64,000 nt of DNA from an uncultured Elusimicrobia bacterium (GTDB lineage Bacteria; Elusimicrobiota; Elusimicrobia; Elusimicrobiales; UBA9959): positions 30,373-94,372 of the forward strand of contig CAIPTO010000106.1 of NCBI GenBank assembly GCA_903867985.1. Direction: 5' to 3'. The translations under genes were made by a program, and so were the position numbers. Numbering within the stretch: position 1 is the first letter of the stretch; the number at the start of each line of letters is the position of its first letter. The notes under the pieces were generated by a model. The model did no database searches, was not told the origin of the DNA, and saw nothing but the letters and a program-made list of their open reading frames with translations. This document shows, one piece after another, positions 6,882 to 62,856 of the stretch.

Positions 6882-8453
6882 ATGGCTCACAGTTCTGCCG
6901 CTAAAAATTCGATCGGCCTTTATATCTCTCCCAAAGAGATCAGTATCGCCCAGACCAGGCTGGGGAAAAACGGGAGGGTGGACGCCGAACATCTGATTAC
7001 GATTCCCACCGCTTTTCAGGCGAGGGAGGGGCTTTTGCGCCCCTTGTCCCTCAATGCTGATTTCTTCAGTGAAAAAGCCTCTTGGATTACCGCCTTCAAG
7101 TCCGCCGTAAAGAATGTCAGTTGGAGCACTTCCAGCGTGGTCGTAACGCTCTCACCGCAGTTCGCGATCCTCCGCTATTTTGTCATGCCCTTTGTCGAGA
7201 GGCGTTTTTGGAATAAATCTATTCCGATCGAATCGAAAAAATACATTCCTGTTTCGTTCGACGAAATAGTCTATGATTTTGCGGCCTACCCGCTGGAGAG
7301 CGGCGCAAAGCTGGGCGTCCTTTTCGGCCTTACTCAGCGCAAGAGCGTGGAATTTATTGTAAACATCCTCAAGAGCTTAGACCTGCAGCTCACAGCCGTA
7401 GAGGTGACGCCTTGTTCCGTGGAGCGCGTTTTCGCTTTTATGGACCCTAAAGATCACGCTTCAAAGGGGTATATACATTTTTCGGGCGGCGCCAGTCTTA
7501 TGTTGTTCTCCAGCGGCGGCTACCCGGTGCTTTACCGGGAAGCCGACTATGAAGCGGCCAGCACCCTGTCGGAACGCAAGCGTCTGGATATAAAGGGCGC
7601 CGTGCAGTTTGTTGATCGCTACGTCGGAGGACAGGAGTATAAACGCCTGATGTTGAGCGGAGATGGCGCGGATGCGTGGAAAGCCGTGGCTGAGCAGGAA
7701 TCCCCGATGCCGGTTGAGATCTGGGATCCGGCCAAGGCGGCCGCGCTCAAAGGCAATGTCTCCGCCCCCTTTTTTTCCATGGGCGCCTCCATGCGCGGCC
7801 GGGTCGCGGAAAAGCTCGCACTGGATGTTTCCGGCATCAGCACGGCTGCCATGATCGAGAAACAGTTGCAGGACTACGTTTGGAACGTTGTTTTTGTACT
7901 GGGGGGGCTGCTGCTATTCCTGTCGGTACTGAGCCAGATACGGATCATGACGATGGAATCAAAAATTTCAGCGATCAACTCCCAGATGGAAAATGCCTCC
8001 GAGCTGGAGGGCAACGACGAAGAAGCTATAAGGGCCAAGATAGAAAAAATGCAGGCCAACGCGAAGATGCTGTCCGTTCTTGTCAACGATACCGATTCTC
8101 TGGCTCCCAAGCTTCAAGTCATCGCCGAGAAGATTCCGCGGGAACTCTGGCTGCAGGATCTTCAATACATGGGGCCTTTTGCGACTTCAGAACTTCAGAC
8201 TTCTGCGAAAGTGATGAAACTCAACGGGGAAACGAATCTCAGCGGTGACATGAAGCAGCGGGTAGTGGACAATTTTAACAAGGCTCTTAAGGATTCCGGG
8301 GAGTTCAAGATTTTCGGGCCTCCTAATGGCGGGATGTCATTCACCACAGAGAGTGAGACTCCGGGTGCATCCGGAGGCTATGGCACAGACCAGGAATCGG
8401 CTGTGAAATCCACCGGCTTTACTATATTATGCACGGCCAGGAGGAAAGGCTAA
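6882..8453 (+). CDS. PilM-like actin-fold assembly protein fused to a PilN-like TM/coiled-coil domain
   Basis: The N-terminal ~330 aa resembles PilM (IGLYISPKEISIAQTRLG...). A single TM helix follows (VWNVVFVLGGLLLFLSVLSQI). The C-terminal domain is coiled-coil plus alpha/beta, in PilN style (IPRELWLQDLQY). The gene sits first in the pilus cluster. Confidence 0.6.
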   Translation: MAHSSAAKNSIGLYISPKEISIAQTRLGKNGRVDAEHLITIPTAFQAREGLLRPLSLNADFFSEKASWITAFKSAVKNVSWSTSSVVVTLSPQFAILRYFVMPFVERRFWNKSIPIESKKYIPVSFDEIVYDFAAYPLESGAKLGVLFGLTQRKSVEFIVNILKSLDLQLTAVEVTPCSVERVFAFMDPKDHASKGYIHFSGGASLMLFSSGGYPVLYREADYEAASTLSERKRLDIKGAVQFVDRYVGGQEYKRLMLSGDGADAWKAVAEQESPMPVEIWDPAKAAALKGNVSAPFFSMGASMRGRVAEKLALDVSGISTAAMIEKQLQDYVWNVVFVLGGLLLFLSVLSQIRIMTMESKISAINSQMENASELEGNDEEAIRAKIEKMQANAKMLSVLVNDTDSLAPKLQVIAEKIPRELWLQDLQYMGPFATSELQTSAKVMKLNGETNLSGDMKQRVVDNFNKALKDSGEFKIFGPPNGGMSFTTESETPGASGGYGTDQESAVKSTGFTILCTARRKG

Positions 8454-9850: not shown

Positions 9851-11590
9851 ATGAAAAAGCTTAGAATTTTACTGACTCTCTGTCTGCTGGCCGAACAGTG
9901 CGTTGTGCCGGTGGCGGTGGTCTTCGCGCAGGACTCCCAAACTCTGGAATCTGACAAGAATTTTACGCAGGATCTTCAGGGACCTTCCTCCGAGGATGGC
10001 GGACCCATACTGAATCACCCGGCCCAGGAGAATCCTCCACCCCAGACAATGCCTCAAGCCTCCACTCCCGGCGCTCCCATAGAATCCGTGCAGATCGGTG
10101 CTGTTCCCCGGGAGGCCCCAATGTACGAGGAGGCTGAAGCTATATCGCCTCTTGACCGCAAGATAGGCCCCATTAGACTTAAGGGAGCCCCCCTGTCTAC
10201 ATTCCTGGACGTGGTATCGGCGCAATCTAAGGTGAATTTCATCATCACCGAAGGTCTTGAAGCCAAAACTATCACCGTTTTTTTACGGAAGACTACTGTG
10301 CGCGAAGCTTTGGAACTTCTGCTGCGAGTCAAGGGGCTGACCTACCAGCGTATAGGCAAAAGTAACACCTATGTAGTCCAGAAACGTTCCGCCGACATGC
10401 CTAATCTGATCACCAAAATATATGTGCTGAATTATATCCCGCTGATCGCGATCGGCTCCGTGGGCGAGGACATGGCGGCCGTCACTTCCCAGGATGTGTC
10501 ATCCTCGGGCGGTTTGTCCTCGGGTGGTTCATCCTCTGGCGGATCGTCCTCGGGCGGCTCATCTTCCGGCGGCAGTCAGCAGAATACCGCCAAGGAAGAA
10601 GATAAGGGTATAGCAATCATGAGTATTATCAGAAGCGTCCTTTCAAAGAAGTACGGCAAGATGGCTAATGATCCCAGAACTAATACTCTCATAATTACCG
10701 ATGTGCCGGAAGTTTTTCCGCAAGTCGAGCAGATTATAGCCGAACTTGATAAAAAAGCTCCCCAGATACTCATAGAGGCTCAGATAGTAGAGATCAACAC
10801 GGATCGCCTTAACGAGCTTGGCATAGAATGGGGCGGCGCACGGGGCGAGATGGCGTATTTCGCCGGCCCCGCCCGCGTGACCGACTACGGCTTAAGACCC
10901 GGATTTTTTTCCGGCGACCAGTGGAAGAATTTCTTTCCGAAATCGGTTGAGACCGTGGGAACACCTCCCTCAGCCGGCAGCACGATCGACCCGGTATTCA
11001 GTACCGGGCAACTCAGTCCTAAAGGCGTATTCTACGGCATATTCAGTCTTGCGCAGCTGCAGGCCACCTTCCGGGCCCTTATTTCGCGGGGAGAGGCGCG
11101 GTACCTCGGCAAGCCCAGGATCGTAGCCATGAACAACAAGACTGCCGTTGTGACGGTTTCCAGAGATGCGGCCGTAGGGCAGAGCTCCCAGGTCTCCTCC
11201 GCCGGAGGCTCAACGGGGTCGTCCACGACCGGGGCGGAAAGACGCAGGGTAGGCTTGACCCTTAAGGTCACGCCGCAGGTCAACAAGGAAGGTTATATTA
11301 CGCTGGTTGTCATGCCCTCTTACTCCGACCTGGTCGCTTCCGCTGTCACAACCACAGGCTCCACGATATACGACCCGGTAAGCCGCGGCGCGTCCACTAT
11401 GGTCAGGGTAAAGAACGGACAAACCGTTGTGATCGGCGGCATGCTTTCTTCCACTGAGACCAAGAGCGTGAAAAAAGTGCCGTTGTTGGGTTATATTCCG
11501 ATCATAGGCTGGCTGTTCACCAGCGTCAGTTCCAGGCGCACGAATACCGATCTGGTGATTTTTGTGACACCTACTATTTTGGTAGACTAA
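9851..11590 (+). CDS. Secretin (PilQ/GspD family outer-membrane channel)
   Basis: It has a signal peptide and the secretin N-domain motif NTLIITDVPEVFPQVEQIIAELD. The C-terminal secretin core is VPLLGYIPIIGWLFTS...TDLVIFVTPTIL. Confidence 0.85.
   Translation: MKKLRILLTLCLLAEQCVVPVAVVFAQDSQTLESDKNFTQDLQGPSSEDGGPILNHPAQENPPPQTMPQASTPGAPIESVQIGAVPREAPMYEEAEAISPLDRKIGPIRLKGAPLSTFLDVVSAQSKVNFIITEGLEAKTITVFLRKTTVREALELLLRVKGLTYQRIGKSNTYVVQKRSADMPNLITKIYVLNYIPLIAIGSVGEDMAAVTSQDVSSSGGLSSGGSSSGGSSSGGSSSGGSQQNTAKEEDKGIAIMSIIRSVLSKKYGKMANDPRTNTLIITDVPEVFPQVEQIIAELDKKAPQILIEAQIVEINTDRLNELGIEWGGARGEMAYFAGPARVTDYGLRPGFFSGDQWKNFFPKSVETVGTPPSAGSTIDPVFSTGQLSPKGVFYGIFSLAQLQATFRALISRGEARYLGKPRIVAMNNKTAVVTVSRDAAVGQSSQVSSAGGSTGSSTTGAERRRVGLTLKVTPQVNKEGYITLVVMPSYSDLVASAVTTTGSTIYDPVSRGASTMVRVKNGQTVVIGGMLSSTETKSVKKVPLLGYIPIIGWLFTSVSSRRTNTDLVIFVTPTILVD
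10499..10573 (+). repeat. Five 15-nt in-frame repeats encoding (S/L)SSGG within the secretin
   Basis: The five units are tcatcctcgggcggt, ttgtcctcgggtggt, tcatcctctggcgga, tcgtcctcgggcggc and tcatcttccggcggc. Confidence 0.85.
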
Positions 11591-11596
11591 TAATGC

Positions 11597-11671
11597 AGTG
11601 ACGAGTGGATAGTGGCTGGTGGACAGTAGTGGATAGTTACAGAACGTAGATCTTTTATTCACTGACCAGTG
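11597..11671 (+). repeat. Heptad array (AGTGNNN)x5 starting 7 nt after the secretin stop, with a CACTG..CAGTG partner
   Basis: AGTG at 11597, 11604 and 11611, GGTG at 11618 and AGTA at 11625 give an exact 7-nt period. CACTGACCAGTG lies at 11660-11671. Confidence 0.6.
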
Positions 11672-20867: not shown

Positions 20868-20871
20868 AAGT

Positions 20872-20961
20872 GCAGAAGCAGAGGGGGGGCGAGAAGGGCA
20901 GAGTGAAATGTGAATTTCCTCACTCTCTACCCTAACCCCTAGACCCTGAACCCTCCCTATC
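20872..20961 (-). repeat. Heptad inverted-repeat element, (AGGGTNN)n type, spanning the nadB stop and the nadB-uvrA spacer
   Basis: On the + strand, CTACCCT, AACCCCT, AGACCCT and GAACCCT lie at 20927-20954 with an exact 7-nt period. The core hairpin is AGAGTGA 20900-20906 / TCACTCT 20920-20926. A purine-rich partner arm lies at 20872-20906. Confidence 0.65.
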
Positions 20962-22554
20962 GTATCTGTCCGCTTTCGTGTTCGCAGTGTAAGTTTCTTC
21001 AGTTTGCGGATAGTTGATGTTAAAATGCAGCCCGCGGGATTCCTTACGCTCCGCCGCGGAGCGTATAATGGTTTCTGCCAGACAGGCTATGTTGCGCAAT
21101 TCCAGCAGGTCCCGAGTTAGCAGGAAATCCCAGTAATATTTGGCGATTTCATCCGTTATGATTTTTATGCGGGCTTTGGCGCGCTCCAGGCGCTTATCGC
21201 TGCGAACGATGCCCACATAATTCCACATTAGCGTGCGGACCTCATCCCAGTTATGGGTTATCATTACTGCCTCGTCCGAATGCCGCGCGTTGCCGTAATT
21301 CCACACCTCAGCCCTGGCTGGACTTTTCGCTGTTTTCTTTCCCAAGTTTCCGCATATCGAGTCCGCGGCGCGCCGGGCGAAGACGCATGCTTCAAGGAGG
21401 GAATTTGAAGCCAGACGGTTCGCCCCGTGCAGGCCCGTGTGGGCCACTTCACCCACGGCGTACAGCCCGGGCATGGCGGTCCGTCCCCATTCGTCGGTTT
21501 CTATTCCTCCGCAGAAGAAGTGCGCGGCGGGCACTACGGGTATCGGGTCCCTGGTAATGTCGATGCCGAAGGAAAGACATTTTTTATAAATATTAGGAAA
21601 ACGCTTCTTTACAAACGCGGCCGGCCGGGCAGTGATGTCAAGATACACGCATTCCGCTCCGCTCTTTTTAAGTTCGTTGTCTATCGCGCGGGCCACGATA
21701 TCCCGCGGCGCCAGTTCTTTCCTGACATCGTAGGCCGCCATGAAAGGTTTGCCTTCGGGGTTGCGCAGGATCGCGCCTTCACCGCGCACAGCTTCCGATA
21801 TAAGGAAGGATTTAGCCTTGGGATGGTAAAGGCAGGTCGGGTGGAACTGGACGAATTCCATATTTATAAGCCGGAGCCCCGCCCGATAGGCCATAGCCAT
21901 CCCATCCCCGGTTGCGGTGTCCGGGTTGGAGGTGTAAAGATAGACTTTACCGGCCCCGCCCGAGGCCAGCACCGTTGCCGAAGCCAGGAAGCTGTGTATG
22001 ATGCCAGTATGCTCTTCCAGCGCGTAAGTTCCCCTGGCAACGTTGCGCTCCGGCCTGACCCCGGCCGGACGGGAGTCCAGTATCAGGTCCACTGCGGCGT
22101 GATCCTCGTAAAAACGGATTTTTTTATTCGCCCGGCATACCCGCAGCAGGGTTGATTCGATCTCGTGCCCGGTGGAGTCGGCGGCATGGAGTATACGCCG
22201 TCTGGAATGTCCGCCTTCCAGGCCGAGTTCAAAATCTGAGCCGTTCTTGGTAAAACACACTCCTAATTCCACCAGTTCCTTCACTCTTTCGGGGCCTTCG
22301 CGCACGGCAATTTCCACTATGTGAAGGTCGGCCAGGCCGGAACCGGTTTTTAAGGTGTCGTTGATATGAAGAATTGCGGCATCATCTTTGCCGGTTACGG
22401 CCGCGATCCCTCCTTGGGCAAGATCGGTGTTGGATACCTGGGCCCCGCGTTTCGAGACAAGGCTTACCGTGCCCGAGCGGGAAAGCCTATGGGCTGTCAG
22501 CAGGCCGGCCAGACCGGTTCCGATAACCAGAAAATCCGATTTATAAATGGACAT
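20932..22554 (-). CDS. nadB: L-aspartate oxidase
   Basis: The N-terminal FAD motif is DFLVIGTGLAGL. Flavoprotein motifs of the succinate dehydrogenase/fumarate reductase family include HPTCLYHP, RGEGAILRN and GLYAVGEVAHTGLHGANRLASNSLLE. Confidence 0.92.
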   Translation of the reverse strand: MSIYKSDFLVIGTGLAGLLTAHRLSRSGTVSLVSKRGAQVSNTDLAQGGIAAVTGKDDAAILHINDTLKTGSGLADLHIVEIAVREGPERVKELVELGVCFTKNGSDFELGLEGGHSRRRILHAADSTGHEIESTLLRVCRANKKIRFYEDHAAVDLILDSRPAGVRPERNVARGTYALEEHTGIIHSFLASATVLASGGAGKVYLYTSNPDTATGDGMAMAYRAGLRLINMEFVQFHPTCLYHPKAKSFLISEAVRGEGAILRNPEGKPFMAAYDVRKELAPRDIVARAIDNELKKSGAECVYLDITARPAAFVKKRFPNIYKKCLSFGIDITRDPIPVVPAAHFFCGGIETDEWGRTAMPGLYAVGEVAHTGLHGANRLASNSLLEACVFARRAADSICGNLGKKTAKSPARAEVWNYGNARHSDEAVMITHNWDEVRTLMWNYVGIVRSDKRLERAKARIKIITDEIAKYYWDFLLTRDLLELRNIACLAETIIRSAAERKESRGLHFNINYPQTEETYTANTKADRYDREGSGSRG

Positions 22555-28769: not shown

Positions 28770-28955
28770 TTACCGGGTGGGGGACCCAAGAGTTTGGGCC
28801 GCGTTGCCAATAAGAGCCTGTATCTGTGAAAATAGCTGGGGGATGTATCTCTTTAGGGCCATTCCGGCAATTAGCACTACTCCCGTTGTGACGGCCAACA
28901 TTAGCAGATATTCAACCGTGTTTTGGCCTTTCCGGCACTTAAATATTTTATTCAT
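28770..28955 (-). CDS. Small Flp-like / class III signal peptide pilin-like protein
   Basis: 61 aa. MNKIFKCRKG/QNTVEYLLMLAVTTGVVLIAG matches the G-xxxxEY Flp/class III signal pattern. AAGGAA lies 7 nt upstream of the ATG. The gene starts 40 nt downstream of the lptB stop on the same strand. Confidence 0.5.
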   Translation of the reverse strand: MNKIFKCRKGQNTVEYLLMLAVTTGVVLIAGMALKRYIPQLFSQIQALIGNAAQTLGSPTR

Positions 28956-32284: not shown

Positions 32285-33139
32285 CTAAAGGCTCCGTAGC
32301 GCTTTGTTGTTTGCAAGTTTCATGGCCAGTCCATCTATCTGGTTCAGCATATCCACGGCATCCGGAATCCTACGGAGTTGAAGGGAATTGGGTCCGTCGG
32401 AAAATGCTTTAGCCGGATCGGGATGGGCCTCAAAAAATATACCGGCTATCTTAAGCGCCGCGGCCGCCCTGGCCAGCGGTAGAGCAAATTTCACGTCGCC
32501 GCCGGTGCTTTTACCCAGGGCGCCCGGCTTCTGCACTGAATGGGTGCAATCGAAGATTACCGGGTAGCCGAAATTTTTCATGATCTCCATGCCGCGCATG
32601 TCCACTACAAGATTATTGTATCCGAACGAGGAACCGCGCTCGGTCAGAAGTATCCGCTTATTGCCGCGTGATTCTATCTTTGAAATAATGTTGCCCATAT
32701 CCCAGGGAGCCAGAAATTGTCCTTTCTTGACATTTACGGCGCACCCGGTGTCGGCGCAGGCGAAGAGAAGGTCTGTTTGCCGGCACAGAAAGGCCGGAAT
32801 CTGCAGGATATCCGCAACTTCCGCCACGCGGGCAGCCTGCGATGGTTCGTGTACGTCTATCAGCACTGGTACATCAAGGCGGTTTTTCAGGTCTTTTAGA
32901 AAATCAAGAGCGGTTTCCATCGGAATGCCGCGGAAAGAAGAATGAGATGTGCGGTTGGCTTTATCGAACGAGGCTTTGAGTACAAAAGAGGTGCCGAGTT
33001 TTTCAAACATCCCCTTCATTTTTACGGCTTGAGCGGCGTAAGTCTTCACGGATTCAATTACGCAGGGGCCGGCTATATAAACAATGGGCGCGTTATTTGA
33101 GAACACCGCAGTTTTTATTTTTACGCTGGTCTGCGTCAT
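32285..33139 (-). CDS. kdsA: 2-dehydro-3-deoxyphosphooctonate aldolase (KDO-8-P synthase)
   Basis: The KdsA pattern runs the full length (IAGPCVIES, KASFDKANRTS, DVHE, LQIPAFLCRQTDL, TERG, DCTHSVQ). Confidence 0.93.
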   Translation of the reverse strand: MTQTSVKIKTAVFSNNAPIVYIAGPCVIESVKTYAAQAVKMKGMFEKLGTSFVLKASFDKANRTSHSSFRGIPMETALDFLKDLKNRLDVPVLIDVHEPSQAARVAEVADILQIPAFLCRQTDLLFACADTGCAVNVKKGQFLAPWDMGNIISKIESRGNKRILLTERGSSFGYNNLVVDMRGMEIMKNFGYPVIFDCTHSVQKPGALGKSTGGDVKFALPLARAAAALKIAGIFFEAHPDPAKAFSDGPNSLQLRRIPDAVDMLNQIDGLAMKLANNKALRSL

Positions 33140-34755
33140 AGTATGAATGCCTCCCTGGCCGCCGGAGCCCCGTGCTTGAGGGCTGCGGCTACAAATCCCC
33201 GGAAGAGCGGGTGAGGCGTAAGGGGGCGGGATTTAAGCTCAGGATGAAACTGCACGCCCATGAACCACGGGTGGCCTCTCAGCTCCACGATCTCAGGAAG
33301 GCCCTTTTCCCTGTAGAAACCGCTGACCGTCATGCCTTTTTTCTCATATGCTTTGAGGTAGCGGGTATTAAATTCGTAACGATGGCGGTGCCGCTCGGAT
33401 ATGAGCGTTCCGCCGTACATGAGCGCGGCGAGTGACCCTGGTTTAAGCCGGCAGGGATAAGCTCCGAGGCGCATGGTTCCGCCTTTTTCCTTCACGCCTT
33501 TTTGTTCGGCCAGGAGATCAACCACCGGGAACTTCGACTTGGGGGCGAATTCCGTGGAGTTGGCTTTTTTATAGCCCAAGACGTCGCGGGCGAACTCTAT
33601 GACCGCGCATTGCATACCCAGGCAGATGCCCAGGAAAGGAACACCCTTCTCCCTGGCATAGCGCACTACGCTTATCTTGCCTTCTATTCCCCGGTCACCG
33701 AAGCCGCCGGGCACGATTATTCCGGAAGCCTTGGATAGACGCTCCATGCAATCCTTATCTTCTACATCCACAAAATCCAGATCCATGCGGACCCCGTTGG
33801 CGATAGCTCCGTGGTGGATGGCCTCTACAAGTGATTTATAGGAATCTTTAAGTTTGGTGTATTTTCCGGCTATGGCGATGCGCACGCCCTGCGCCTTCTC
33901 CGCGGTTTTCAGTTTTTCCACGAAAGAGTTCCATTCTTCAAAGTCCCATTTCTTGCTCCTCATACGAAGCAGCATCATGATCTGTTCGTCTATCCCCTGT
34001 TTCTTTAAAACATTGGGGACGGCGTAAATTGAGAAGGTGTTTGGCGCCTCTATCACGGCCTCGTCGGGCACGCTGGTAAAAAGAGCTATTTTATTGCGTA
34101 TTTCTTTGCCAAGGGGTTTTTCCGTGCGGCAGACAATAATGTCCGGGTCTATTCCTATCTCGCGCAGCTTGTTGACCGAATGCTGGGTGGGCTTGGTCTT
34201 AAGCTCGTCGCTGGCCGAAAGATATGGAACCAGCGTCACATGTATATATATCACATCGGTTCGCGTCCTGTCGGGCCGCATCTGTCTGGCGGCCTCCAGG
34301 AACGGGAGGCTCTCGATGTCGCCAACGGTGCCGCCGATTTCCACAATGGTGATATCGAATCCCTCTCCGGCCTTATAGAACCTTTTTTTTATCTCGTCGG
34401 TGATATGCGGAATGACTTGGACGGTCTGGCCCAGATAAAGACCTGAACGCTCCTTTGCTATCACGGTCTGATATATCTGCCCGGCAGTCATATTGTTGTC
34501 GCGACGGGTGTCTATCTCGAGAAAACGCTCGTAATAACCCAGATCCAGATCGGTTTCGGCTCCGTCGTCAGTTACAAAGACTTCGCCATGCTGGAATGGA
34601 GCCATGGTTCCCGCGTCCACGTTGATATAGGGATCGCATTTTACAATGTTGACTGACAACCCGTGGGCTTTTAAAAGGCGCCCCACGGAAGCGGCCGTTA
34701 TCCCTTTACCCAGCGAACTAACCACACCGCCGGTCACAAATATATATCTGGTCAT
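33136..34755 (-). CDS. pyrG: CTP synthase
   Basis: MTRYIFVTGGVVSSLGKG is present. The glutamine amidotransferase domain has GICLGMQ and HRHRYEFN. Confidence 0.97.
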   Translation of the reverse strand: MTRYIFVTGGVVSSLGKGITAASVGRLLKAHGLSVNIVKCDPYINVDAGTMAPFQHGEVFVTDDGAETDLDLGYYERFLEIDTRRDNNMTAGQIYQTVIAKERSGLYLGQTVQVIPHITDEIKKRFYKAGEGFDITIVEIGGTVGDIESLPFLEAARQMRPDRTRTDVIYIHVTLVPYLSASDELKTKPTQHSVNKLREIGIDPDIIVCRTEKPLGKEIRNKIALFTSVPDEAVIEAPNTFSIYAVPNVLKKQGIDEQIMMLLRMRSKKWDFEEWNSFVEKLKTAEKAQGVRIAIAGKYTKLKDSYKSLVEAIHHGAIANGVRMDLDFVDVEDKDCMERLSKASGIIVPGGFGDRGIEGKISVVRYAREKGVPFLGICLGMQCAVIEFARDVLGYKKANSTEFAPKSKFPVVDLLAEQKGVKEKGGTMRLGAYPCRLKPGSLAALMYGGTLISERHRHRYEFNTRYLKAYEKKGMTVSGFYREKGLPEIVELRGHPWFMGVQFHPELKSRPLTPHPLFRGFVAAALKHGAPAAREAFIL

Positions 34756-34780
34756 TGGAATGCCCTTATTGCAAGTTCAA

Positions 34781-34848
34781 AGGATTAAATACAGAGGATT
34801 AAGAACTGATCTTTCGCCGACCGCTTAATCCTTACGACTTATCGCTTA
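34781..34848 (-). repeat. Heptad inverted-repeat element, TAAG type, in the kdsB-pyrG spacer
   Basis: On the + strand, CCGCTTA, ATCCTTA, CGACTTA and TCGCTTA lie at 34821-34848 with an exact 7-nt period. The last TTA is the kdsB stop codon. The partner units are AAAGGATTAAATAC and AGAGGATTAAGAAC at 34779-34806. The 9-bp stem is AGGATTAAG/CTTAATCCT. Confidence 0.7.
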
Positions 34849-35580
34849 ATTCCCGTTTTTGATAAACTTTTCGGCCGCCTTCAGGTCCGCCGGCGTATCT
34901 ATGGCCGGTCCCAGAATCTTCACGCTTGCCACGCCTATCGTCATTCCGCATTCAAGAGCGCGGAGCTGTTCCAGCCGCTCCAAAAGTTCAAGCGGGCTCG
35001 GTTTAAGACGCACAAAGCGCTCCAGCGATGAGCGCTTGTATATGTAAAAACCGCAATGCTTATACCACGGAGATTTTTTCAGGCCTGAAAGCGGATGGTG
35101 GAAGGGTATGGGGGAGCGGGAGAAGTAAAGCGCCCGGCCATCCCGATTCATTGCGACTTTGACGCAGTTGGGGTTGGCTATATCAGTTTTGTCCATTATT
35201 GGCGCGCAGGCGGTTCCGATGTCGAAACCCGCGCGCATTTGCTTAAAAGCCGCCAGCAGCGTTTCTGCGCGCATGAACGGCTCATCGCCCTGGAAATTGA
35301 TTATAAATTTCTTTTTGGAGCCTTTGGACGCCTCGTAAACGCGGTCCGTGCCGGAAACGCATCTGGCACTGGTCATAACGGCATCGGCGCCGATGCTTTT
35401 CGCGAATTCCAGCACTCGCCTGTCCTCGGTAGCGATGAGTACCGGACCAAGGCCCGATTTGACCGCGGCTTCGTGGCACCACTGAAGCACGGCCTTGCCG
35501 CGGATCTTCGCCAGAACTTTGCCGGGAAAGCGCTGCGAATTATAGCGGGCTGGAATGACTATTAAACAGTTTTTGTCCAT
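34846..35580 (-). CDS. kdsB: 3-deoxy-manno-octulosonate cytidylyltransferase (CMP-KDO synthetase)
   Basis: VIPARYNSQRFPGK and NFQGDEP motifs. Confidence 0.9.
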   Translation of the reverse strand: MDKNCLIVIPARYNSQRFPGKVLAKIRGKAVLQWCHEAAVKSGLGPVLIATEDRRVLEFAKSIGADAVMTSARCVSGTDRVYEASKGSKKKFIINFQGDEPFMRAETLLAAFKQMRAGFDIGTACAPIMDKTDIANPNCVKVAMNRDGRALYFSRSPIPFHHPLSGLKKSPWYKHCGFYIYKRSSLERFVRLKPSPLELLERLEQLRALECGMTIGVASVKILGPAIDTPADLKAAEKFIKNGN

Positions 35581-36578
35581 GATTTTATGTTTTCCAGAAG
35601 CTCTTCCTTCCTTACGGAGGCGGTGCCGAGCTTCGCTACTACGATGCCTGCCGCGAAGTTGGATATTAAGGCCGCTTCTTCCAGCGTCGCGCCTGCGGCT
35701 GAAGCCAGGGCCAGCGTTGAGATGACCGTATCGCCCGCGCCGGTCACATCGTACACTTCCCGGGCTTTGGTGGGGATGTGCAGAGTTTTCATGCGGCCGC
35801 CGGTATTATTAAAAAGCGTCATGCCGTGTTCGCCTTGGGTTACGAGCAGCGACCGGCAATTAAGCGTCCTGATTATTTTTTTACCCAGTTCTTCTACCGC
35901 GGCCTGACCCTCTTTTTGTATCAGGCGCATCCCCTGGTATGCTTCCATTGTGTTCGGCGTCAGACAGGTTACTCTTTTATAGCGGGCGAAGTGCTCTATT
36001 TTTGGATCCACGAAAACCGGTACGCCTTGCCTGATAGCCAGCTTTATTGCAGCCTCGATGATATGCGGCGTAAGCAGGCCTTTGCCGTAATCCGACAATA
36101 TCAGGGCGCCGGCTCCGGCTTCAAGCTGCGCGTCCAGCGCGGCCAGTACGGATTTCTGCAGAGAGGGAGTGATCTTGAGTACGGGTTCGCGGTCAAAGCG
36201 CACCACCTGCTGGTGTTCGGCTATGACGCGGGTCTTTTCGATGGTGAAGGTGGGGGGGTGGGCGATAAGGGAACCGGTATCAACGCCTTTTGCTGAAAGG
36301 ATTTCTGCAAGTTCTTTCGCGGCTGCGTCCCGGCCGGTTATGGATATCAGGGCGGGCCGGGCGCCTAACGCGGCGAGATTAGCCGCCACATTCCCGGAAC
36401 CTCCGGCAACGGTATGTTGCTCCCGCACTTTCACTATGGGAACGGGCGCTTCAGGAGAGATCCGTCGTACAGTGCCCATGATATACCGGTCAAGCATTAC
36501 ATCACCCAGGACCGCTACGCGCTTTGAGCTGAAATTGTCAATTATCCCGCGGAGTCTGCCGAAAGCCATGTTATCCAT
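35562..36578 (-). CDS. hldA: D-glycero-beta-D-manno-heptose-7-phosphate kinase (RfaE domain I type, PfkB family; kinase domain only)
   Basis: PfkB motifs include VLGDVMLDRY...GGSGNVA and DVTGAGDT. At 338 aa it has no adenylyltransferase domain. Confidence 0.8.
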   Translation of the reverse strand: MDNMAFGRLRGIIDNFSSKRVAVLGDVMLDRYIMGTVRRISPEAPVPIVKVREQHTVAGGSGNVAANLAALGARPALISITGRDAAAKELAEILSAKGVDTGSLIAHPPTFTIEKTRVIAEHQQVVRFDREPVLKITPSLQKSVLAALDAQLEAGAGALILSDYGKGLLTPHIIEAAIKLAIRQGVPVFVDPKIEHFARYKRVTCLTPNTMEAYQGMRLIQKEGQAAVEELGKKIIRTLNCRSLLVTQGEHGMTLFNNTGGRMKTLHIPTKAREVYDVTGAGDTVISTLALASAAGATLEEAALISNFAAGIVVAKLGTASVRKEELLENIKSWTKTV

Positions 36579-43274: not shown

Positions 43275-43300
43275 ATTTTTTCATCGCGTTTTTCGGAATG

Positions 43301-43487
43301 ATTAACCTGAAAGTTGCAGGTGCGACTTTCCGCCTGTATAGCAGGCGCCCGATCGGGAGGCATACATCTTCTCGGATACATCGCGCATAGCGCTTGATCC
43401 TCGACCCGCTGCTGCGGGGAATCCTGCAGAATAATTCTGTTACTCGATTTTATCAATGAGATATACCTTAATCTGCAGGATTCAGGC
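43301..43487 (-). repeat. ~190-nt structured repeat, copy B (inverted relative to copy A)
   Basis: The reverse complement aligns with 17870-18056. The element begins directly after the deacetylase TAG stop (43487-43489) and ends 27 nt before the GT9 ATG. It is therefore co-oriented with the flanking - strand genes. Confidence 0.7.
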
Positions 43488-50390: not shown

Positions 50391-51674
50391 TTAGCGGGAG
50401 GGGAACTGAGAGGTTATTTCTTTCAATGTTAGCGCGGTGGCGCCCTTTAGCGCTTCAAGGGCAGCTTTGGCGGCGATTCCGGCTTCCTTAAGGGCAGCGG
50501 GATCTTTTAGAAGTGAAATTGTTTTATCGGCAAGTTCATCGGCGGTACATACCATGAAGCCGCCGTTCCTATTCATAAGAGCCTGGGCGCCTTCCTGAGT
50601 ATGCTTTATATTCGGGCCGAAAAGCACAGGTTTCGCGAGCGCGGCAGGCTCAAGCACATTGTGCCCGCCCGTATCGTCCAGCGTGCCTCCCACGAACACA
50701 ACATCGGAGTAGGAATAAATATCAGCCAAGCGGCCGAACTCATTAACCAACAGGCAGTCAGGGCCCGGCCGGGCGTGCGCGCGCTGGGACCAAAGCGGGG
50801 CTATCAAGCCTTTGTTCCGGATCCTGGATGCGGTTTCTGAAGCTGTTTCCGGATGCCTGGGGGCTATTATCATCCGGGTATCCGGGAGAGCCTCTTTGAT
50901 CTTAATGAACGCCTCCAATATCACGTTTTCTTCAGCCGGGTGAGTGCTTCCGGCGCAGAATATTTTTTTATCCTTCCAGCCTGCCGCCTCAATAAACTCC
51001 ATAATCGCAGCGCGGCCCTGCGGCTGCAGATCCACCAGATCGTGTTTTATGTTGCCCGTAAGCGTCAGCTTTTCCGCCCCGCCCAGCAGGAGATCGTATC
51101 GTTCCAAGTCGCCGCGGCTCTGCGCGGCTATCTTGCAGATATTGGCGAACATGAGGCGCGAGAGAGGTGAAAACAGCCGGTAAAAGCCCAGGGTGCGCGC
51201 TGAGATACGCGCGTTTATTATCATAACATTGACTCCTGCTTTGCCTGCCGCGTAAAGCAGGTTGGGCCAGAGCTCGGTCTCGGCTATCAGCAGCAACTCC
51301 GGACGCGCCGCGGCTATAAAACGTCTCATAAGGGGATAGAAATCCAACGGAAGCAGGAAAGCGTGAGTCGTCAGCCTGAGGGCTTCCGCCCGTCCTGAGG
51401 AGGTGGAAGTAGTGATCATTATCGGCCTTGACGGGCAGCGCTCACGCATTAAAGGCAGGATCTTGCGGAGCGCCTTAACCTCACCTACCGATGCTGCGTG
51501 AAACCAGAGCGGGCGCTCGGAGAAAGAGGGCACGGTGATGGCGAAGCGTTCTCTAAGCTCCGCCAACAGGTTATTCAGCAGGCTGCGCCGGGGGGAAAAC
51601 AAGAAAAAAACCAGATAGAGCGCCGCGATAAACGGCGCAAGGAGATTGTAAAGAATTAACAATAAAAAGCCCAT
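50391..51674 (-). CDS. waaA: 3-deoxy-D-manno-octulosonic acid (KDO) transferase
   Basis: LWFHAASVGEV, ETELWPNL and GGTLDDTGGHNVLEPA motifs. Confidence 0.9.
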   Translation of the reverse strand: MGFLLLILYNLLAPFIAALYLVFFLFSPRRSLLNNLLAELRERFAITVPSFSERPLWFHAASVGEVKALRKILPLMRERCPSRPIMITTSTSSGRAEALRLTTHAFLLPLDFYPLMRRFIAAARPELLLIAETELWPNLLYAAGKAGVNVMIINARISARTLGFYRLFSPLSRLMFANICKIAAQSRGDLERYDLLLGGAEKLTLTGNIKHDLVDLQPQGRAAIMEFIEAAGWKDKKIFCAGSTHPAEENVILEAFIKIKEALPDTRMIIAPRHPETASETASRIRNKGLIAPLWSQRAHARPGPDCLLVNEFGRLADIYSYSDVVFVGGTLDDTGGHNVLEPAALAKPVLFGPNIKHTQEGAQALMNRNGGFMVCTADELADKTISLLKDPAALKEAGIAAKAALEALKGATALTLKEITSQFPSR

Positions 51675-51699
51675 AGTTCAGGGAGTAATGATCAAGGAT

Positions 51700-51793
51700 T
51701 AAGCACTAAGGATTAAGTGATAAGAATTAATTTTTTTACCTATGTCTTACGACTTACAGCTTACACCTTATAATTTATCCTTATCACTTAATC
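51700..51793 (-). repeat. Heptad inverted-repeat element, TAAG type, filling the DUF374-waaA spacer
   Basis: On the + strand, TAAG lies at 51700, 51707, 51714 and 51721 (TAAT at 51728). CTTA lies at 51746, 51753, 51760, 51767, 51780 and 51787. The 14-nt perfect complement is 51711-51724 / 51780-51793, which overlaps the TGA stop at 51784-51786. Confidence 0.75.
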
Positions 51794-52413
51794 AGTTCCA
51801 GAGCTTCAGCCCCAAGCGAGTTTAAAGCCTGCTCCAGTTCTTCGGCCTTGGCCGGTATGGAATCAGTTTCGGAAACGCTGATAGGGTCGCCATAGACGAT
51901 CGCGGCTTTGCCGAAGGGCAGTGGGAATTCAAAATTATCCCAGGAATTAAAAGTGATCTTGCGCGAGAGTCCTACTCCGGTAGGCAGTATTTTCATGCCG
52001 GTCCTCTGAGCCAGATAGATGACGCCCTGCTGGACTTTTCCCTTAGGCCCCTTTGGGCCATCGGGCGTAATTGCCACCGGGAAACCGGCGGCCGCGCGCT
52101 CTATGAGCTCCATGAGGGATTGGGAGGCGCCTCGGCTGGTGGAACCTCTGACGGTATTGTGCCCGAACTTGCGCAGCACTCTGGCCATGTATTCTCCATC
52201 AGTGCTTTTACTGACCAGCGCTGATATGCCCATGCCGCGGTGAGAATAAAGCATGAAGGCCAGTTGTGAATGCCAAAGGGTGTATATGAAGTCGGCGTTC
52301 TCCGGCCTGTTTTCCCATCTTAACCGCGTGGTAGCGCCTGTGAATAATATATATAGATACGCCAGGAACGGCAGAATGGAATGCAGGGGGCTTGAGTGCG
52401 TAGACTCATTCAT
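51784..52413 (-). CDS. DUF374 / lysophospholipid-acyltransferase-like protein
   Basis: LWHSQL, SKSTDGEYMARV, VRGSTSRG and ITPDGPKGP are present. The ATG at 52413 overlaps the upstream gene by 8 nt. The longer track ORF is rejected. Confidence 0.7.
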   Translation of the reverse strand: MNESTHSSPLHSILPFLAYLYILFTGATTRLRWENRPENADFIYTLWHSQLAFMLYSHRGMGISALVSKSTDGEYMARVLRKFGHNTVRGSTSRGASQSLMELIERAAAGFPVAITPDGPKGPKGKVQQGVIYLAQRTGMKILPTGVGLSRKITFNSWDNFEFPLPFGKAAIVYGDPISVSETDSIPAKAEELEQALNSLGAEALELIK

Positions 52414-60947: not shown

Positions 60948-61444
60948 GCGGCCCTCGCCAGCGCCGCTTTGAAAGGCGCCACGCGTATGTGACAAATAGC
61001 GGCGGCCATAGCGTCCGCTATATCGTCGGGGCGGGGGGGGGCTTCAAGGTTAAGCGTCATTTGCACTATTCTCTGGATCTGTGACTTTTCCGCGCTGCCG
61101 TTCCCGCTGACCGTCTTTTTTATGGTCTTGGGGTTATACGAACTTATCTTACGCGAGAGTTTTTCGCAAGCCAGCAATATGACACCGCGGGCGTGGGTGG
61201 TGTTTGCCTGCGTCTCGGCTCTCTTAGAGAAAAAAACTTCCTCTATCGCCACTTCGTCGGGATTGTTCTCTTTTATCACGTCGCTTAAAGCGTCGTAAAT
61301 TTCCGCCAGGCGTTTTTCGAGGCGAAGTCCTTTCTCAGTGTGAATGAGCCCCGACGCCAGCAGGCGCGGAGATTCCGAAGGGGCGCTTTCCAGCACTGCC
61401 CAGCCGGTACGGTCGAGTCCGGGGTCGATGCCCAATATTCTCAT
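60944..61444 (-). CDS. ruvC: Crossover junction endodeoxyribonuclease RuvC
   Basis: MRILGIDPGLDRTGWAV and DIADAMAAAICH. Confidence 0.93.
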   Translation of the reverse strand: MRILGIDPGLDRTGWAVLESAPSESPRLLASGLIHTEKGLRLEKRLAEIYDALSDVIKENNPDEVAIEEVFFSKRAETQANTTHARGVILLACEKLSRKISSYNPKTIKKTVSGNGSAEKSQIQRIVQMTLNLEAPPRPDDIADAMAAAICHIRVAPFKAALARAA

Positions 61445-61459
61445 AAAAGATTTTATGTC

Positions 61460-61540
61460 AGGGTATAGAGGGGTGAGGGTCCAGGGTTTAGGAACCCTGT
61501 ATTTGCCGCGCTATACCCTCCACCCTGATCCCTATACCCC
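61460..61540 (-). repeat. Heptad inverted-repeat element, AGGGT type, in the yebC-ruvC spacer
   Basis: On the + strand, ATACCCT, CCACCCT, GATCCCT and ATACCCC lie at 61513-61540 with an exact 7-nt period. The G-rich partner is 61460-61493. Nested stems are GGGTATAG (61461-68) / CTATACCC (61532-39) and CAGGGTT (61482-88) / AACCCTG (61493-99). Confidence 0.7.
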
Positions 61541-61544
61541 GGTT

Positions 61545-62297
61545 TTATTCCAACTTGGATAGAATGGAGTCCGGAATGTCAAAATTGGAATGGACCTTCT
61601 GAACATCATCATGGTCCTCGAGATTGCTCATCAGGTTGACAACCTGCTGCGCCTTATCTTCTCCCACTTTGACTTCGTTTTTTGCGAGCATGGTCAACTC
61701 AGCCAGTACGATGGGGATCTTGCGCTCTTCCAGTTTTTTCTTTACGGACTCAAAGTCCGCCGGGGCGGTGATTATCTCATACTCGTCGGATTCGGGTTGC
61801 GACTTGAAATCTTCGGCGCCGATATCGAGGGCCAGCGTCATCAGTTCATCTTCCTTGGCATCGGCTTTTTTTACTGAGATATATCCTTTCGGCTCGAACA
61901 TCCAGGCCACGCTGCCGGTGCTGGCTATATTGCCGCCGGAAACCTCAAAGATCTTTCGTATTTCGCTGAAAACCCGGTTTCGATTGTCGGTGGTGACTTC
62001 CACAAGAACGGCGATGCCGCCCGGGCCGTAGCCCTCATACATTATTTCCTCGTAAGTTACGCCGGGCAATTGGCCGGTTCCCCGCATTATGGCGCGTTTT
62101 ATATTATCAACGGGCATATTGGCCTCTTTGGCGTCTTCCATAGCTTTGCGGAGGCGGGGATTTTCGTCAGGTTTACCGCCGCCTATCTTAGCGGCCATGG
62201 CGATTTCTTTTATGATCCTCGTGAAGACTTTGCCTTTCTTCGCGTCCGTAATGGCTTTTTTGTGTTTTATTCCTGCCCAGTGAGAGTGTCCACCCAT
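61545..62297 (-). CDS. yebC: YebC/PmpR-family transcriptional regulator
   Basis: MGGHSHWAGIKHKKA... and the full-length family pattern are present. Confidence 0.93.
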   Translation of the reverse strand: MGGHSHWAGIKHKKAITDAKKGKVFTRIIKEIAMAAKIGGGKPDENPRLRKAMEDAKEANMPVDNIKRAIMRGTGQLPGVTYEEIMYEGYGPGGIAVLVEVTTDNRNRVFSEIRKIFEVSGGNIASTGSVAWMFEPKGYISVKKADAKEDELMTLALDIGAEDFKSQPESDEYEIITAPADFESVKKKLEERKIPIVLAELTMLAKNEVKVGEDKAQQVVNLMSNLEDHDDVQKVHSNFDIPDSILSKLE

Positions 62298-62573
62298 AAT
62301 CGGCTCCTTTGCCTCCAGAGGGCTGGAGGATCAGAGGACTGGAGGATCGGCCGCAGCGGTTTACATCCTGCTGGTCCAAAATGCTGATAATCCTCAGTCG
62401 TCTCTATCACATCGTTGAAATTCAACTTTTGCACGCGACTCAGTAAATAAATTCTATAATAATATGCGGTCTTTCACAAGACCCGCGGATGGCTTATTAG
62501 TGATCAGCGGCAAGTGTTAAGGCAACCGAAGCATTATCGATGTCCGCGACTAGCCGCTAAACATTTGATTTAT

Positions 62574-62647
62574 GCCCCCTTAGCTCAACTGGATAGAGCA
62601 ACTGCCTTCGGAGCAGTAGGTTAGAGGTTCGAACCCTCTAGGGGGCA
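62574..62647 (+). tRNA. tRNA-Arg (anticodon UCG)
   Basis: Manual cloverleaf. The acceptor is GCCCCCT/AGGGGGC and the D arm is GCTC/GAGC. The anticodon stem is ACTGC/GCAGT with loop CTTCGGA. The T arm is AGAGG-TTCGAAC-CCTCT and the discriminator is A. No CCA is encoded. Confidence 0.9.
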
Positions 62648-62683
62648 CAAAATTTAGGTCATTGCAACTAGATGCAATAACCT

Positions 62684-62787
62684 GCCATTCGCCGTTTGCC
62701 ATAGGCCGTACGCAGAAAGCCCATGCAGAAGGCTCATAAGGGAATCTCTTTAAAAGTTTATGGCTAATGGCATAAGGCAAATGGCGG
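62684..62787 (+). repeat. Heptad inverted-repeat element, GCCRT type, between tRNA-Arg and the next gene
   Basis: GCCAT at 62684, GCCGT at 62691, GCCAT at 62698 and GCCGT at 62705 have a 7-nt period. The inverted partners are ATGGC at 62760, ATGGC at 62767, AAGGC at 62774 and ATGGC at 62781. Confidence 0.7.
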
Positions 62788-62856
62788 ACGTTTACTGTCA
62801 TAATTTCGTAATCTATTCTTAACGTTCCTGAAAGACGGATATAAGACACTATATAT

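Follow-up and report, generated by a model that had tools for sequence, protein, structure and literature searches.

A heptanucleotide-repeat element in the kdsB-pyrG spacer of an uncultured Elusimicrobia bacterium, probably one copy of a class of intercistronic hairpins

Heptanucleotide repeats are, according to the summary of Mrazek (2007) given in PMC4679880, the most abundant class of long simple sequence repeats (SSRs) in most bacterial genomes, and polymerase slippage has been proposed to account for them. The (GGGANTN)n repeats of Xanthomonas are mostly composed of four heterogeneous units and sometimes occur as inverted pairs; they are under-represented between divergent genes and are mostly transcribed (PMC4692102). 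Here we describe a heptad element in the spacer between kdsB and pyrG, in a 64,000-nt stretch of DNA (contig CAIPTO010000106.1; hereafter the window) from an uncultured Elusimicrobia bacterium. Its closest known counterparts are the long heptanucleotide SSRs, namely the STRR sequences of cyanobacteria (Calothrix/Nostoc), the Xanthomonas (GGGANTN)n repeats, the Nostoc GGGGA(C/T)T repeats and the TAACTGA repeats of Beggiatoaceae. Judged from its sequence, the element is probably an intercistronic hairpin of the heptanucleotide-SSR type that acts on the mRNA. We consider it rather probable that it is one copy of a lineage-wide class of heptad intercistronic hairpins, generated by slippage and retained on the RNA level. 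Membership in the class is much more certain than the functional part of this interpretation.

The genes around the element lie on the minus strand throughout, and the spacer exhibits the following features.

34756-34845, minus-strand genes on both sides: the kdsB-pyrG spacer, 90 nt
34846-34848, minus strand: TAA, the stop codon of kdsB and at the same time the opening three bases of the heptad array
34821-34848, minus strand: first arm, four heptads TAAGCGA TAAGTCG TAAGGAT TAAGCGG (mRNA sense)
34804-34823, minus strand: 20-nt loop separating the arms of the 9-bp stem
34795-34803, minus strand: proximal stem half of the second arm, mRNA CUUAAUCCU, pairing perfectly with 34824-34832
34773-34788, minus strand: distal copy of the second arm, mRNA UUAAUCCUUUGAACUU
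34763-34767, minus strand: putative Shine-Dalgarno-like AAGGG, 7 nt 5' of the pyrG ATG (34753-34755) and outside the element proper

An initial annotation, made from the letters of the window alone, had described this spacer on the plus strand, and its description is accurate. The array (NNNCTTA)x4 at 34821-34848 has an exact 7-nt period and reads ccgCTTA atcCTTA cgaCTTA tcgCTTA; in mRNA sense the TAAG core is invariant and the triplets are variable. The last TTA of the array (34846-34848) is the reverse complement of the TAA that ends the minus-strand KdsB open reading frame (ORF). The heptamer GGATTAA is found in the opposing arm at 34782-34788 and 34796-34802, spaced by 14 nt. The proposed 9-bp stem, formed by AGGATTAAG (34795-34803) and CTTAATCCT (34824-34832), is 100% complementary with 20 nt between its arms; in mRNA sense, CUUAAUCCU is fully complementary to AAGGAUUAAG. 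The distal copy UUAAUCCUUUGAACUU (34773-34788) is an alternative and mutually exclusive partner of 34825-34840 (16 nt, 81% complementary). The minimum free energy (MFE) fold of the corresponding spacer in L001, a metagenome-assembled genome (MAG) that gave the best genome match, uses the counterpart of this distal pairing. From their sequence, the segments 34773-34788 and 34795-34803 can be read together as a decayed CTTA-heptad arm with an apparent 14-nt period.

A second TAAG element is located upstream of waaA and is a larger version of the same layout.

51675-51783, between minus-strand genes: the DUF374-waaA spacer, 109 nt
51739-51790, minus strand: first arm, TAAG heptads, with plus-strand CTTA at 51746, 51753, 51760, 51767, 51780 and 51787
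51693-51731, minus strand: second arm, CTTA heptads on the mRNA (TAAG x4-5 on the plus strand)

Both loci sit between co-directional minus-strand genes and exhibit a common architecture: stop codon, TAAG heptads, loop, CTTA heptads, about 20 nt, start codon. At the waaA locus, about seven TAAG units are followed by an A7 loop and four or five CTTA units, with a stem of 17-22 bp; the stop codon TGA of the DUF374 ORF (51784-51786) falls inside the first-arm array. The segments 51711-51732 and 51772-51793 are 91% complementary over 22 nt, and the predicted fold (17-bp stem) has a z-score of -1.97.

The initial annotation held that the two loci are related by descent or a common constraint and not by chance. 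The exclusion of chance is well supported. The pattern TAAGN3TAAGN3TAAG, with at most one mismatch, has 10 matches in the window, all in the kdsB-pyrG and waaA spacers; the expectation from dinucleotide shuffles is 0.24, and none of 100 shuffles reaches 10. The four-unit TAAG pattern, with at most three mismatches, has 12 matches against 0.33 expected. The 11-mer CTTACGACTTA, on which the proposed kinship had been based, is indeed exact at 34831-34841 and 51746-51756. It is nevertheless weak evidence for a relation of the two loci, and adds little because both are already known to be CTTA arrays. Given two CTTA-heptad arrays, at least one shared spacer triplet is expected with P = 0.17 if the same strand is considered and 0.28 if both are; the triplets actually common to both loci are two (CGA and ATC; P = 0.04). 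The common architecture stands, and the 11-mer is no evidence of descent; nor is the link specific to TAAG or to these two loci. Among smaller coincidences, the unit TAAGGAT(TAAG) is present at both loci (34824-34834 and 51707-51717), and GGATTAAG occurs in four copies in the window, all within the two TAAG spacers. Within such units, AAGGA is Shine-Dalgarno-like and its partner AUCCUU anti-Shine-Dalgarno-like, so that they might affect the ribosome after termination; this does not extend to other cores.

A scan for period-7 self-similarity revealed further elements of the same build in the window.

61445-61544, minus strand: AGGG(T) x4 then ACCCT x4, filling a co-directional spacer; fold z = -4.5 (61440-61550)
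20868-20960, minus strand: AGGGT heptads x4 overlapping the end of ORF 20932-22554, then a small hairpin and a CCCT-rich arm; fold z = -1.7
11591-11668, plus strand: AGTGG/AGTGA heptads, 6 nt past the stop of ORF 9851-11590, then a short CACTG/CCAGTG arm
62683-62788, strand unassigned: GCCAT x4, about 40 nt, ATGGC x4, 36 nt downstream of a tRNA gene
62574-62647, plus strand: the tRNA gene adjoining the GCCAT element

The GCCAT element folds well on both strands (z = -4.2 on the plus and -2.9 on the minus strand; 62675-62795), and the fold of the AGTGG element is not significant (z = +0.55). A weak, decayed TAAG-like array (62497-62521; three mismatches relative to the four-unit pattern) is present at the opposite flank of the tRNA gene. 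In other Elusimicrobiota sequences, cores of the window are found again at non-orthologous sites: TAAG in L025 and L041, AGGGT in L004, L006 and L009, and AGTGG in L025. The element of L041 is a TAAG/CTTA pair with the same layout as that of kdsB-pyrG, upstream of a gene that we take to be tgt from its N-terminal sequence. For these comparisons, the window and all 120 fetched loci were searched with degenerate patterns in place of an nhmmer/Infernal seed model; no such model was built because unit number and register are too variable for a useful alignment.

The kdsB-pyrG element is therefore not part of a two-locus TAAG family, and the window holds at least four more spacers with heptads and inverted heptads. 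As other cores are found in the window and other heptads in the orthologous spacers of relatives (see below), the common factor is a lineage-wide class or process. Likewise, a Kdo (3-deoxy-D-manno-oct-2-ulosonic acid) or lipopolysaccharide (LPS) gene context is no rule, since the TAAG/CTTA element of L041 precedes a putative tgt. TAAG-like heptads also occur in an unrelated organism, L083 (WaaA 33% identical, G+C content 49%). There, positions 8355-8445 comprise about eight near-perfect heptamers TTAAGAG/TTAAGAA, then four GACACGG-type heptads and a T7 run, upstream of a gene that, from its N-terminal sequence, is presumably leuA. Heptanucleotide arrays of the TAAG kind are thus not confined to Elusimicrobiota.

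The 7-nt period is specific. When the window and 29 loci were scanned for arrays of four or more units around an exact 4-mer core, 24 were found at period 7, against 0-8 at the other periods among 4-14; the 24 are concentrated in the window, L001, L004, L006, L009, L012 and L025. When spacers are counted, 21 of the 90 in nine heptad-bearing sequences exhibit a period-7 array of at least three units, compared with 0-6 for other periods (the next-highest being 6 and 8) and 0.5 for shuffles. The arrays are also strongly biased to between-gene DNA: 14.8 kb of spacer contain 24 of them and 179 kb of coding sequence 14, a roughly 20-fold difference in density. They lie downstream of genes, in 22/68 co-directional and 2/9 convergent spacers and in none of the 13 divergent ones (Fisher P = 0.017; by spacer length P = 0.0015). 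The density is roughly one element per 10 kb. Most members of the class fold far better than shuffles (z from -2.9 to -4.7; L041 -3.5, L025 -4.7, L004 -3.4, L009 -2.9), and in these the variable positions of the two arms are also complementary. In nine of ten independent inverted pairs, the purine-rich arm precedes the other (P = 0.02; window, L001, L004, L009, L012, L025, L036 and L041). The TAAG elements of the window and their class thus exhibit three of the defining features of heptanucleotide repeats: at least three head-to-tail 7-nt units (four at 34821-34848; at least four per arm at 51693-51790), the period-7 excess and the between-gene bias.

KdsB homologues place the window in Elusimicrobiota. 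The best genome match is L001 (93% identity), and the sister species, at about 87-89% nucleotide identity, keeps both TAAG elements (L001 for kdsB-pyrG, L036 for DUF374-waaA). The initial annotation would have been contradicted by a lack of further copies in the genome and of conservation in the same spacer of related genomes; neither is the case, and the spacers of the sister species conserve the element. The kdsB-pyrG spacer differs from that of L001 by substitutions in 12 of 89 columns (13.5%) and by two single-base gaps. This is less than the divergence at fourfold-degenerate sites of the four flanking genes (221/697, 31.7%; P = 3e-4), and most other spacers of the same collinear block are 18-48% different with many gaps. 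When both loci and their arms are pooled, substitutions affect 4/60 core positions and 10/42 triplet positions (P = 0.019; about 3.5 times fewer in cores). It follows that the cores are constrained and that the triplets drift at about the synonymous rate.

Slippage had been suggested as a source of length variation, and here the two loci give different answers. The waaA spacer of L036 contains seven TAAG and five CTTA units and differs from that of the window by 6-nt and 21-nt indels, which are unit-sized. In contrast, the kdsB-pyrG spacer differs from that of L001 only by the substitutions and single-base gaps given above; an apparent fifth TAAG in L001 is a substitution and not a unit gain, since the window has TCGG there. 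An array-length difference among close strains was not found. Six metagenome contigs from six assemblies encode an identical KdsB and have an identical spacer, but as they are 99.9-100% identical to the window in DNA, this test has little power. Three contigs encoding an identical WaaA have a constant spacer of 109 nt from gene coordinates.

With greater divergence, the same spacers contain other sequences (identity in brackets). The kdsB-pyrG spacer carries AAGTCTA heptads with an inverted arm in L004 (86%), CAAGTCA x4 in L009 (74%) and GATTAAG-type heptads with an inverted arm in L025 (60%). Among other relatives at 83-88%, the spacer is missing (0 nt), is 18 nt long, or consists of 154 nt unrelated in sequence; a further contig encoding a KdsB homologue has 117 nt (from gene coordinates), and high-GC relatives exhibit short spacers or G+C-rich hairpins. 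Among five KdsB homologues at 86-93% identity, TAAG heptads are present in the 93% one only, AAGTCTA heptads in one, and no heptads in three. Upstream of waaA, L041 (69%) has CAGGT x4 then ACCTG x4, and L037-L040 have ordinary hairpins. Elsewhere, the region of L001 orthologous to window 43275-43486 has ATGGC/GCCAT-type heptads and the window a different palindrome, CCTGAATCCTGCAGA...TCTGCAGGATTCC; by sequence, this looks like a replacement of elements within one orthologous spacer. A 329-nt "spacer" on our map of ORFs of 150 aa is little diverged from L001 because of a well conserved 61-aa minus-strand ORF inside it (28770-28955, MNKIFKCRKGQNTVEYLLMLAV...), which, on reading its sequence, we take to resemble a Flp-type pilin.

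Our preferred interpretation is as follows. An element of the class would comprise a short array of 7-nt units, each with a conserved core of 4-5 nt and 2-3 free positions, followed by an inverted array of the complementary core. The inverted complementary array allows the spacer to fold back along its full length, between the stop codon and the following ribosome-binding site. Such elements would occupy DNA between genes in a subset of Elusimicrobiota. Replication slippage, the cause proposed for bacterial heptanucleotide SSRs at large, may give rise to the arrays and alter their length, operating in a 7-nt register, and the inverted arm may derive from inverted duplication or template switching. 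On the polycistronic mRNA they would form a register-tolerant intercistronic stem-loop: periodic cores would permit several pairing registers, as the alternative partners 34795-34803 and 34773-34788 suggest. The stem-loop would punctuate the transcript, for instance as a 3'-end barrier against decay, as a processing site or by decoupling neighbouring cistrons; it is not proposed to be a promoter, an intrinsic terminator or a gene-specific switch. Its retention would reflect a use at the RNA level, or at least a tolerance restricted to that setting, and with greater divergence it would give way to other heptad cores, ordinary hairpins or nothing.

Several observations weigh against this interpretation. 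The kdsB-pyrG hairpin has a predicted MFE no better than shuffles (z = -0.19; L001, z = -0.35), and in these predictions it is the weakest hairpin of the heptad class. In the 17-bp waaA stem, the substitutions of L036 are non-compensatory, 3/17 pairs break and the predicted register shifts; there is thus no covariation support for a fixed structure. Conservation of the core only is not expected of a plain hairpin and would be explained at least equally well by a factor that reads the periodic core. In addition, the census rests on crude longest-ORF gene calls and covers about 0.6 Mb of Elusimicrobiota sequence, of which about 0.2 Mb is heptad-bearing.

The simplest alternative is that the repeats are a neutral by-product, that is, slippage-born heptanucleotide SSRs that decay without function and persist since nothing removes them. 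The lability of the kdsB-pyrG spacer in relatives with a KdsB of 87-88% identity (0, 18 or 154 unrelated nt), the absence of the element from most of 28 Elusimicrobiota loci, the unrelated functions of the flanking genes and the weak fold of the kdsB-pyrG copy all agree with this, and no function was found for the repeats of Xanthomonas, Nostoc and Calothrix (PMC4692102). Neutral decay should yet strike all seven positions alike, and the cores are invariant within arrays and have changed far less than the triplets between species; the spacer has diverged at below half the fourfold-site rate. Neither the lack of arrays in the 13 divergent spacers nor the purine-first order of nine of ten pairs is expected from it. 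The core-only constraint, the absence from divergent spacers and the arm order thus argue that the repeats are more than slippage debris, and we regard a purely neutral origin as unlikely. The core-only constraint would also suit an RNA platform, in which an oligomeric protein similar to HutP or TRAP reads N-A-G every 7 nt on the first arm, competes with the hairpin and sets downstream read-through or translation. In sense orientation, the stop-proximal arrays of most core families do carry an invariant AG at a fixed phase (TAAG, AGGG, AGTG, CAGG, AAGTC, AGAAG, AAGAGT and CAGTAAT), with the complementary CT on the second arm. The resulting format, (N-A-G-N4)n, is that of HutP sites, at which the protein recognizes XAG motifs spaced by 4 nt, three on each face, reading A and G alone (PMC2425495). 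The AG pattern was, however, recognized post hoc, and AA is almost as frequent, so that it may be mere purine richness; the GCCAT, GAACC and GGAT families lack AG. A second XAG site at a distance of 12-17 nt downstream is also lacking, as is a G+C-rich terminator followed by a U-tract, and a dedicated attenuator would not be expected to recur about once every 10 kb at housekeeping genes. We therefore hold such a platform to be improbable. Equally improbable is its extension, that the different heptad cores are variants of one (N-A-G-N4)n code served by a single oligomeric RNA-binding reader across hundreds of intercistronic hairpins; if true, it would amount to genome-wide, protein-gated punctuation of operons in this Elusimicrobiota lineage.

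A cis-regulatory element specific to TAAG, co-ordinating the Kdo/LPS-core genes (kdsB-pyrG-kdsA and DUF374-waaA), is suggested by the location of both TAAG loci of the window in Kdo-related clusters and by their conservation in the sister species. Moreover, the kdsB-pyrG spacer of L025 contains GATTAAG heptads, and in L006 AAGGAT heptads lie some 2.8 kb downstream of kdsB, about where the Kdo cluster of the window ends. Such a role is very improbable in view of the TAAG/CTTA element with the same layout before the putative tgt of L041, of the non-TAAG heptads or missing elements in the same two spacers of intermediate relatives, and of elements built identically around other cores, which lie at unrelated genes and next to a tRNA gene. 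If the heptads instead act as DNA, they could be iterons recognized by a protein of the ribbon-helix-helix type, with the omega repressor/ParB of pSM19035 as a model, or by another DNA-binding oligomer. Their contiguous 7-bp units with a conserved core, direct and inverted, have the format of omega2 sites, and conservation of the core alone suits a core-reading protein. Against this, the elements lie inside operons right after stop codons and are absent from all 13 divergent spacers, no promoter-like sites were found at either TAAG locus, and several unrelated cores in one genome would require several cognate proteins. Strong members also have arms complementary at the variable positions, which a core-reading DNA binder does not need; iterons appear extremely improbable here. 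We give just as little credence to a REP/REPIN- or MITE-type palindrome, whether mobile or mobilised. Its supporting observations are between-gene hairpins in co-directional and convergent spacers, many copies per genome and a presence that varies among orthologous spacers. However, the copies have no consensus beyond a 4-5-nt core that differs by locus, no terminal repeats or target-site duplications were seen, and an internal 7-nt periodicity is not a property of REP or MITE elements.

Searches for known elements recovered none of the usual categories at the two TAAG loci. At the gathering threshold, Rfam families matched only the tRNA in the whole window; with E-values up to 10, no match was obtained at 34650-34950, and only sub-threshold plant microRNA and snoRNA noise at 51600-51880. 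No intrinsic terminator (G+C-rich stem and U-tract) was identified in 34600-35000 or 51550-51950, and no sigma-70-like promoter at the kdsB-pyrG or waaA locus. A REP-like consensus is absent among the copies, as the cores differ (TAAG, AGGGT, AGTGG, GCCAT) and nothing is common beyond the core. Tandem Repeats Finder detected the waaA-locus arm and the ACCCT array at low score and missed the kdsB-pyrG array because its units are only 4/7 identical.

Three further ideas were discarded. The recurrence of TAA every 7 nt places stops in all three frames, but stop codons are missing from most other cores (AGGGT, AGTGG, CAGGT, GCCAT). Mimicry of Shine-Dalgarno and anti-Shine-Dalgarno sequences by TAAGGAT and ATCCTTA units fails for the other cores, and waaA has no obvious Shine-Dalgarno sequence. 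A hypervariable phase-variation repeat does not agree with the identical spacer of the six near-identical contigs, a test of low power. Two tandem repeats in the window are of another kind. The 16-nt repeat CAGAGGACTGGAGGAT at 62316-62348 (2.1 copies, 94% matches) is not a heptad and lies 19 nt upstream of the ATG of the minus-strand ORF 61545-62297. A 15/30-nt repeat at 10499-10572 (Tandem Repeats Finder score 99) is inside the coding ORF 9851-11590 and probably encodes a repetitive peptide segment.

The genes next to the kdsB-pyrG spacer are the following.

35562-36578, minus strand: heptose-7-phosphate kinase, upstream of kdsB
34846-35580, minus strand: KdsB, a 244-aa ORF (NCBIfam match 4.6e-77)
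33136-34755, minus strand: PyrG (CTP synthase) ORF (profile match 3.4e-244)
32285-33139, minus strand: KdsA, downstream of pyrG

Several described systems share part of this design. The REP, BIME and REPIN sequences are imperfect hairpins with many copies in transcribed co-directional or convergent spacers, as here; in contrast to them, the Elusimicrobiota copies have no shared consensus, and their arms have an internal 7-nt periodicity. The role of REP sequences in mRNA punctuation is a plausible analogue. HutP is a protein of the Bacillota. The sites it recognizes at the hut terminator of Bacillus subtilis exhibit AG every 7 nt (XAG and a 4-nt spacer) in at least three units 5' of a hairpin (PMC2425495), and the kdsB-pyrG element has a motif of this format, AAG every 7 nt four times on the mRNA strand. 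Unlike the HutP sites, it has no second XAG site, no G+C-rich terminator and no U-tract, and the class is found at many housekeeping loci. The omega2 protein of pSM19035, of the ribbon-helix-helix type, binds sites of 5'-(T/A)ATCAC(T/A)-3' in 6-10 heptads; in these sites, too, 7-bp units adjoin one another without gaps, have a conserved core and occur both directly repeated and inverted (PMC4627068). However, omega sites are promoter and centromere sites of a plasmid, whereas the present elements are chromosomal, lie within operons, have several cores and have arms 20-40 nt apart.

Likeness is greatest with the heptanucleotide SSRs. Common properties are a 7-nt period with short arrays of about four heterogeneous units in which some positions are conserved, a location in between-gene DNA near ORF ends with depletion between divergent genes, inverted pairs, in some cases, able to form stem-loops, and a location kept between related species with variable length and sequence (PMC4692102, PMC4679880). 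Perfect SSRs differ from the present arrays, in which 4/7 positions are conserved; these match the heterogeneous Xanthomonas (GGGANTN)n type. Three features set the Elusimicrobiota elements apart. The core of the kdsB-pyrG element is TAAG and not G-rich, so that an explanation by G-quadruplexes is inapplicable. A single genome contains several cores unrelated to one another. In most of the copies examined here, the array is paired with an inverted arm, so that the element takes up the spacer between the stop codon and the ribosome-binding site. A full-text literature search on the phylum name and repeat terms returned no relevant report of tandem repeats in intergenic DNA of Elusimicrobiota. 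The present case thus adds a phylum, with a non-G-rich example, to the hosts of heptanucleotide repeats. In annotation, neither a gene-specific riboswitch nor an LPS-regulon site is an appropriate label for the kdsB-pyrG element. The locus itself is ordinary, and it offers a clean case for asking what role heptanucleotide repeats play: the described families are without an established function, and the comparison of sister species made here indicates a constraint on the periodic 4-nt core only.

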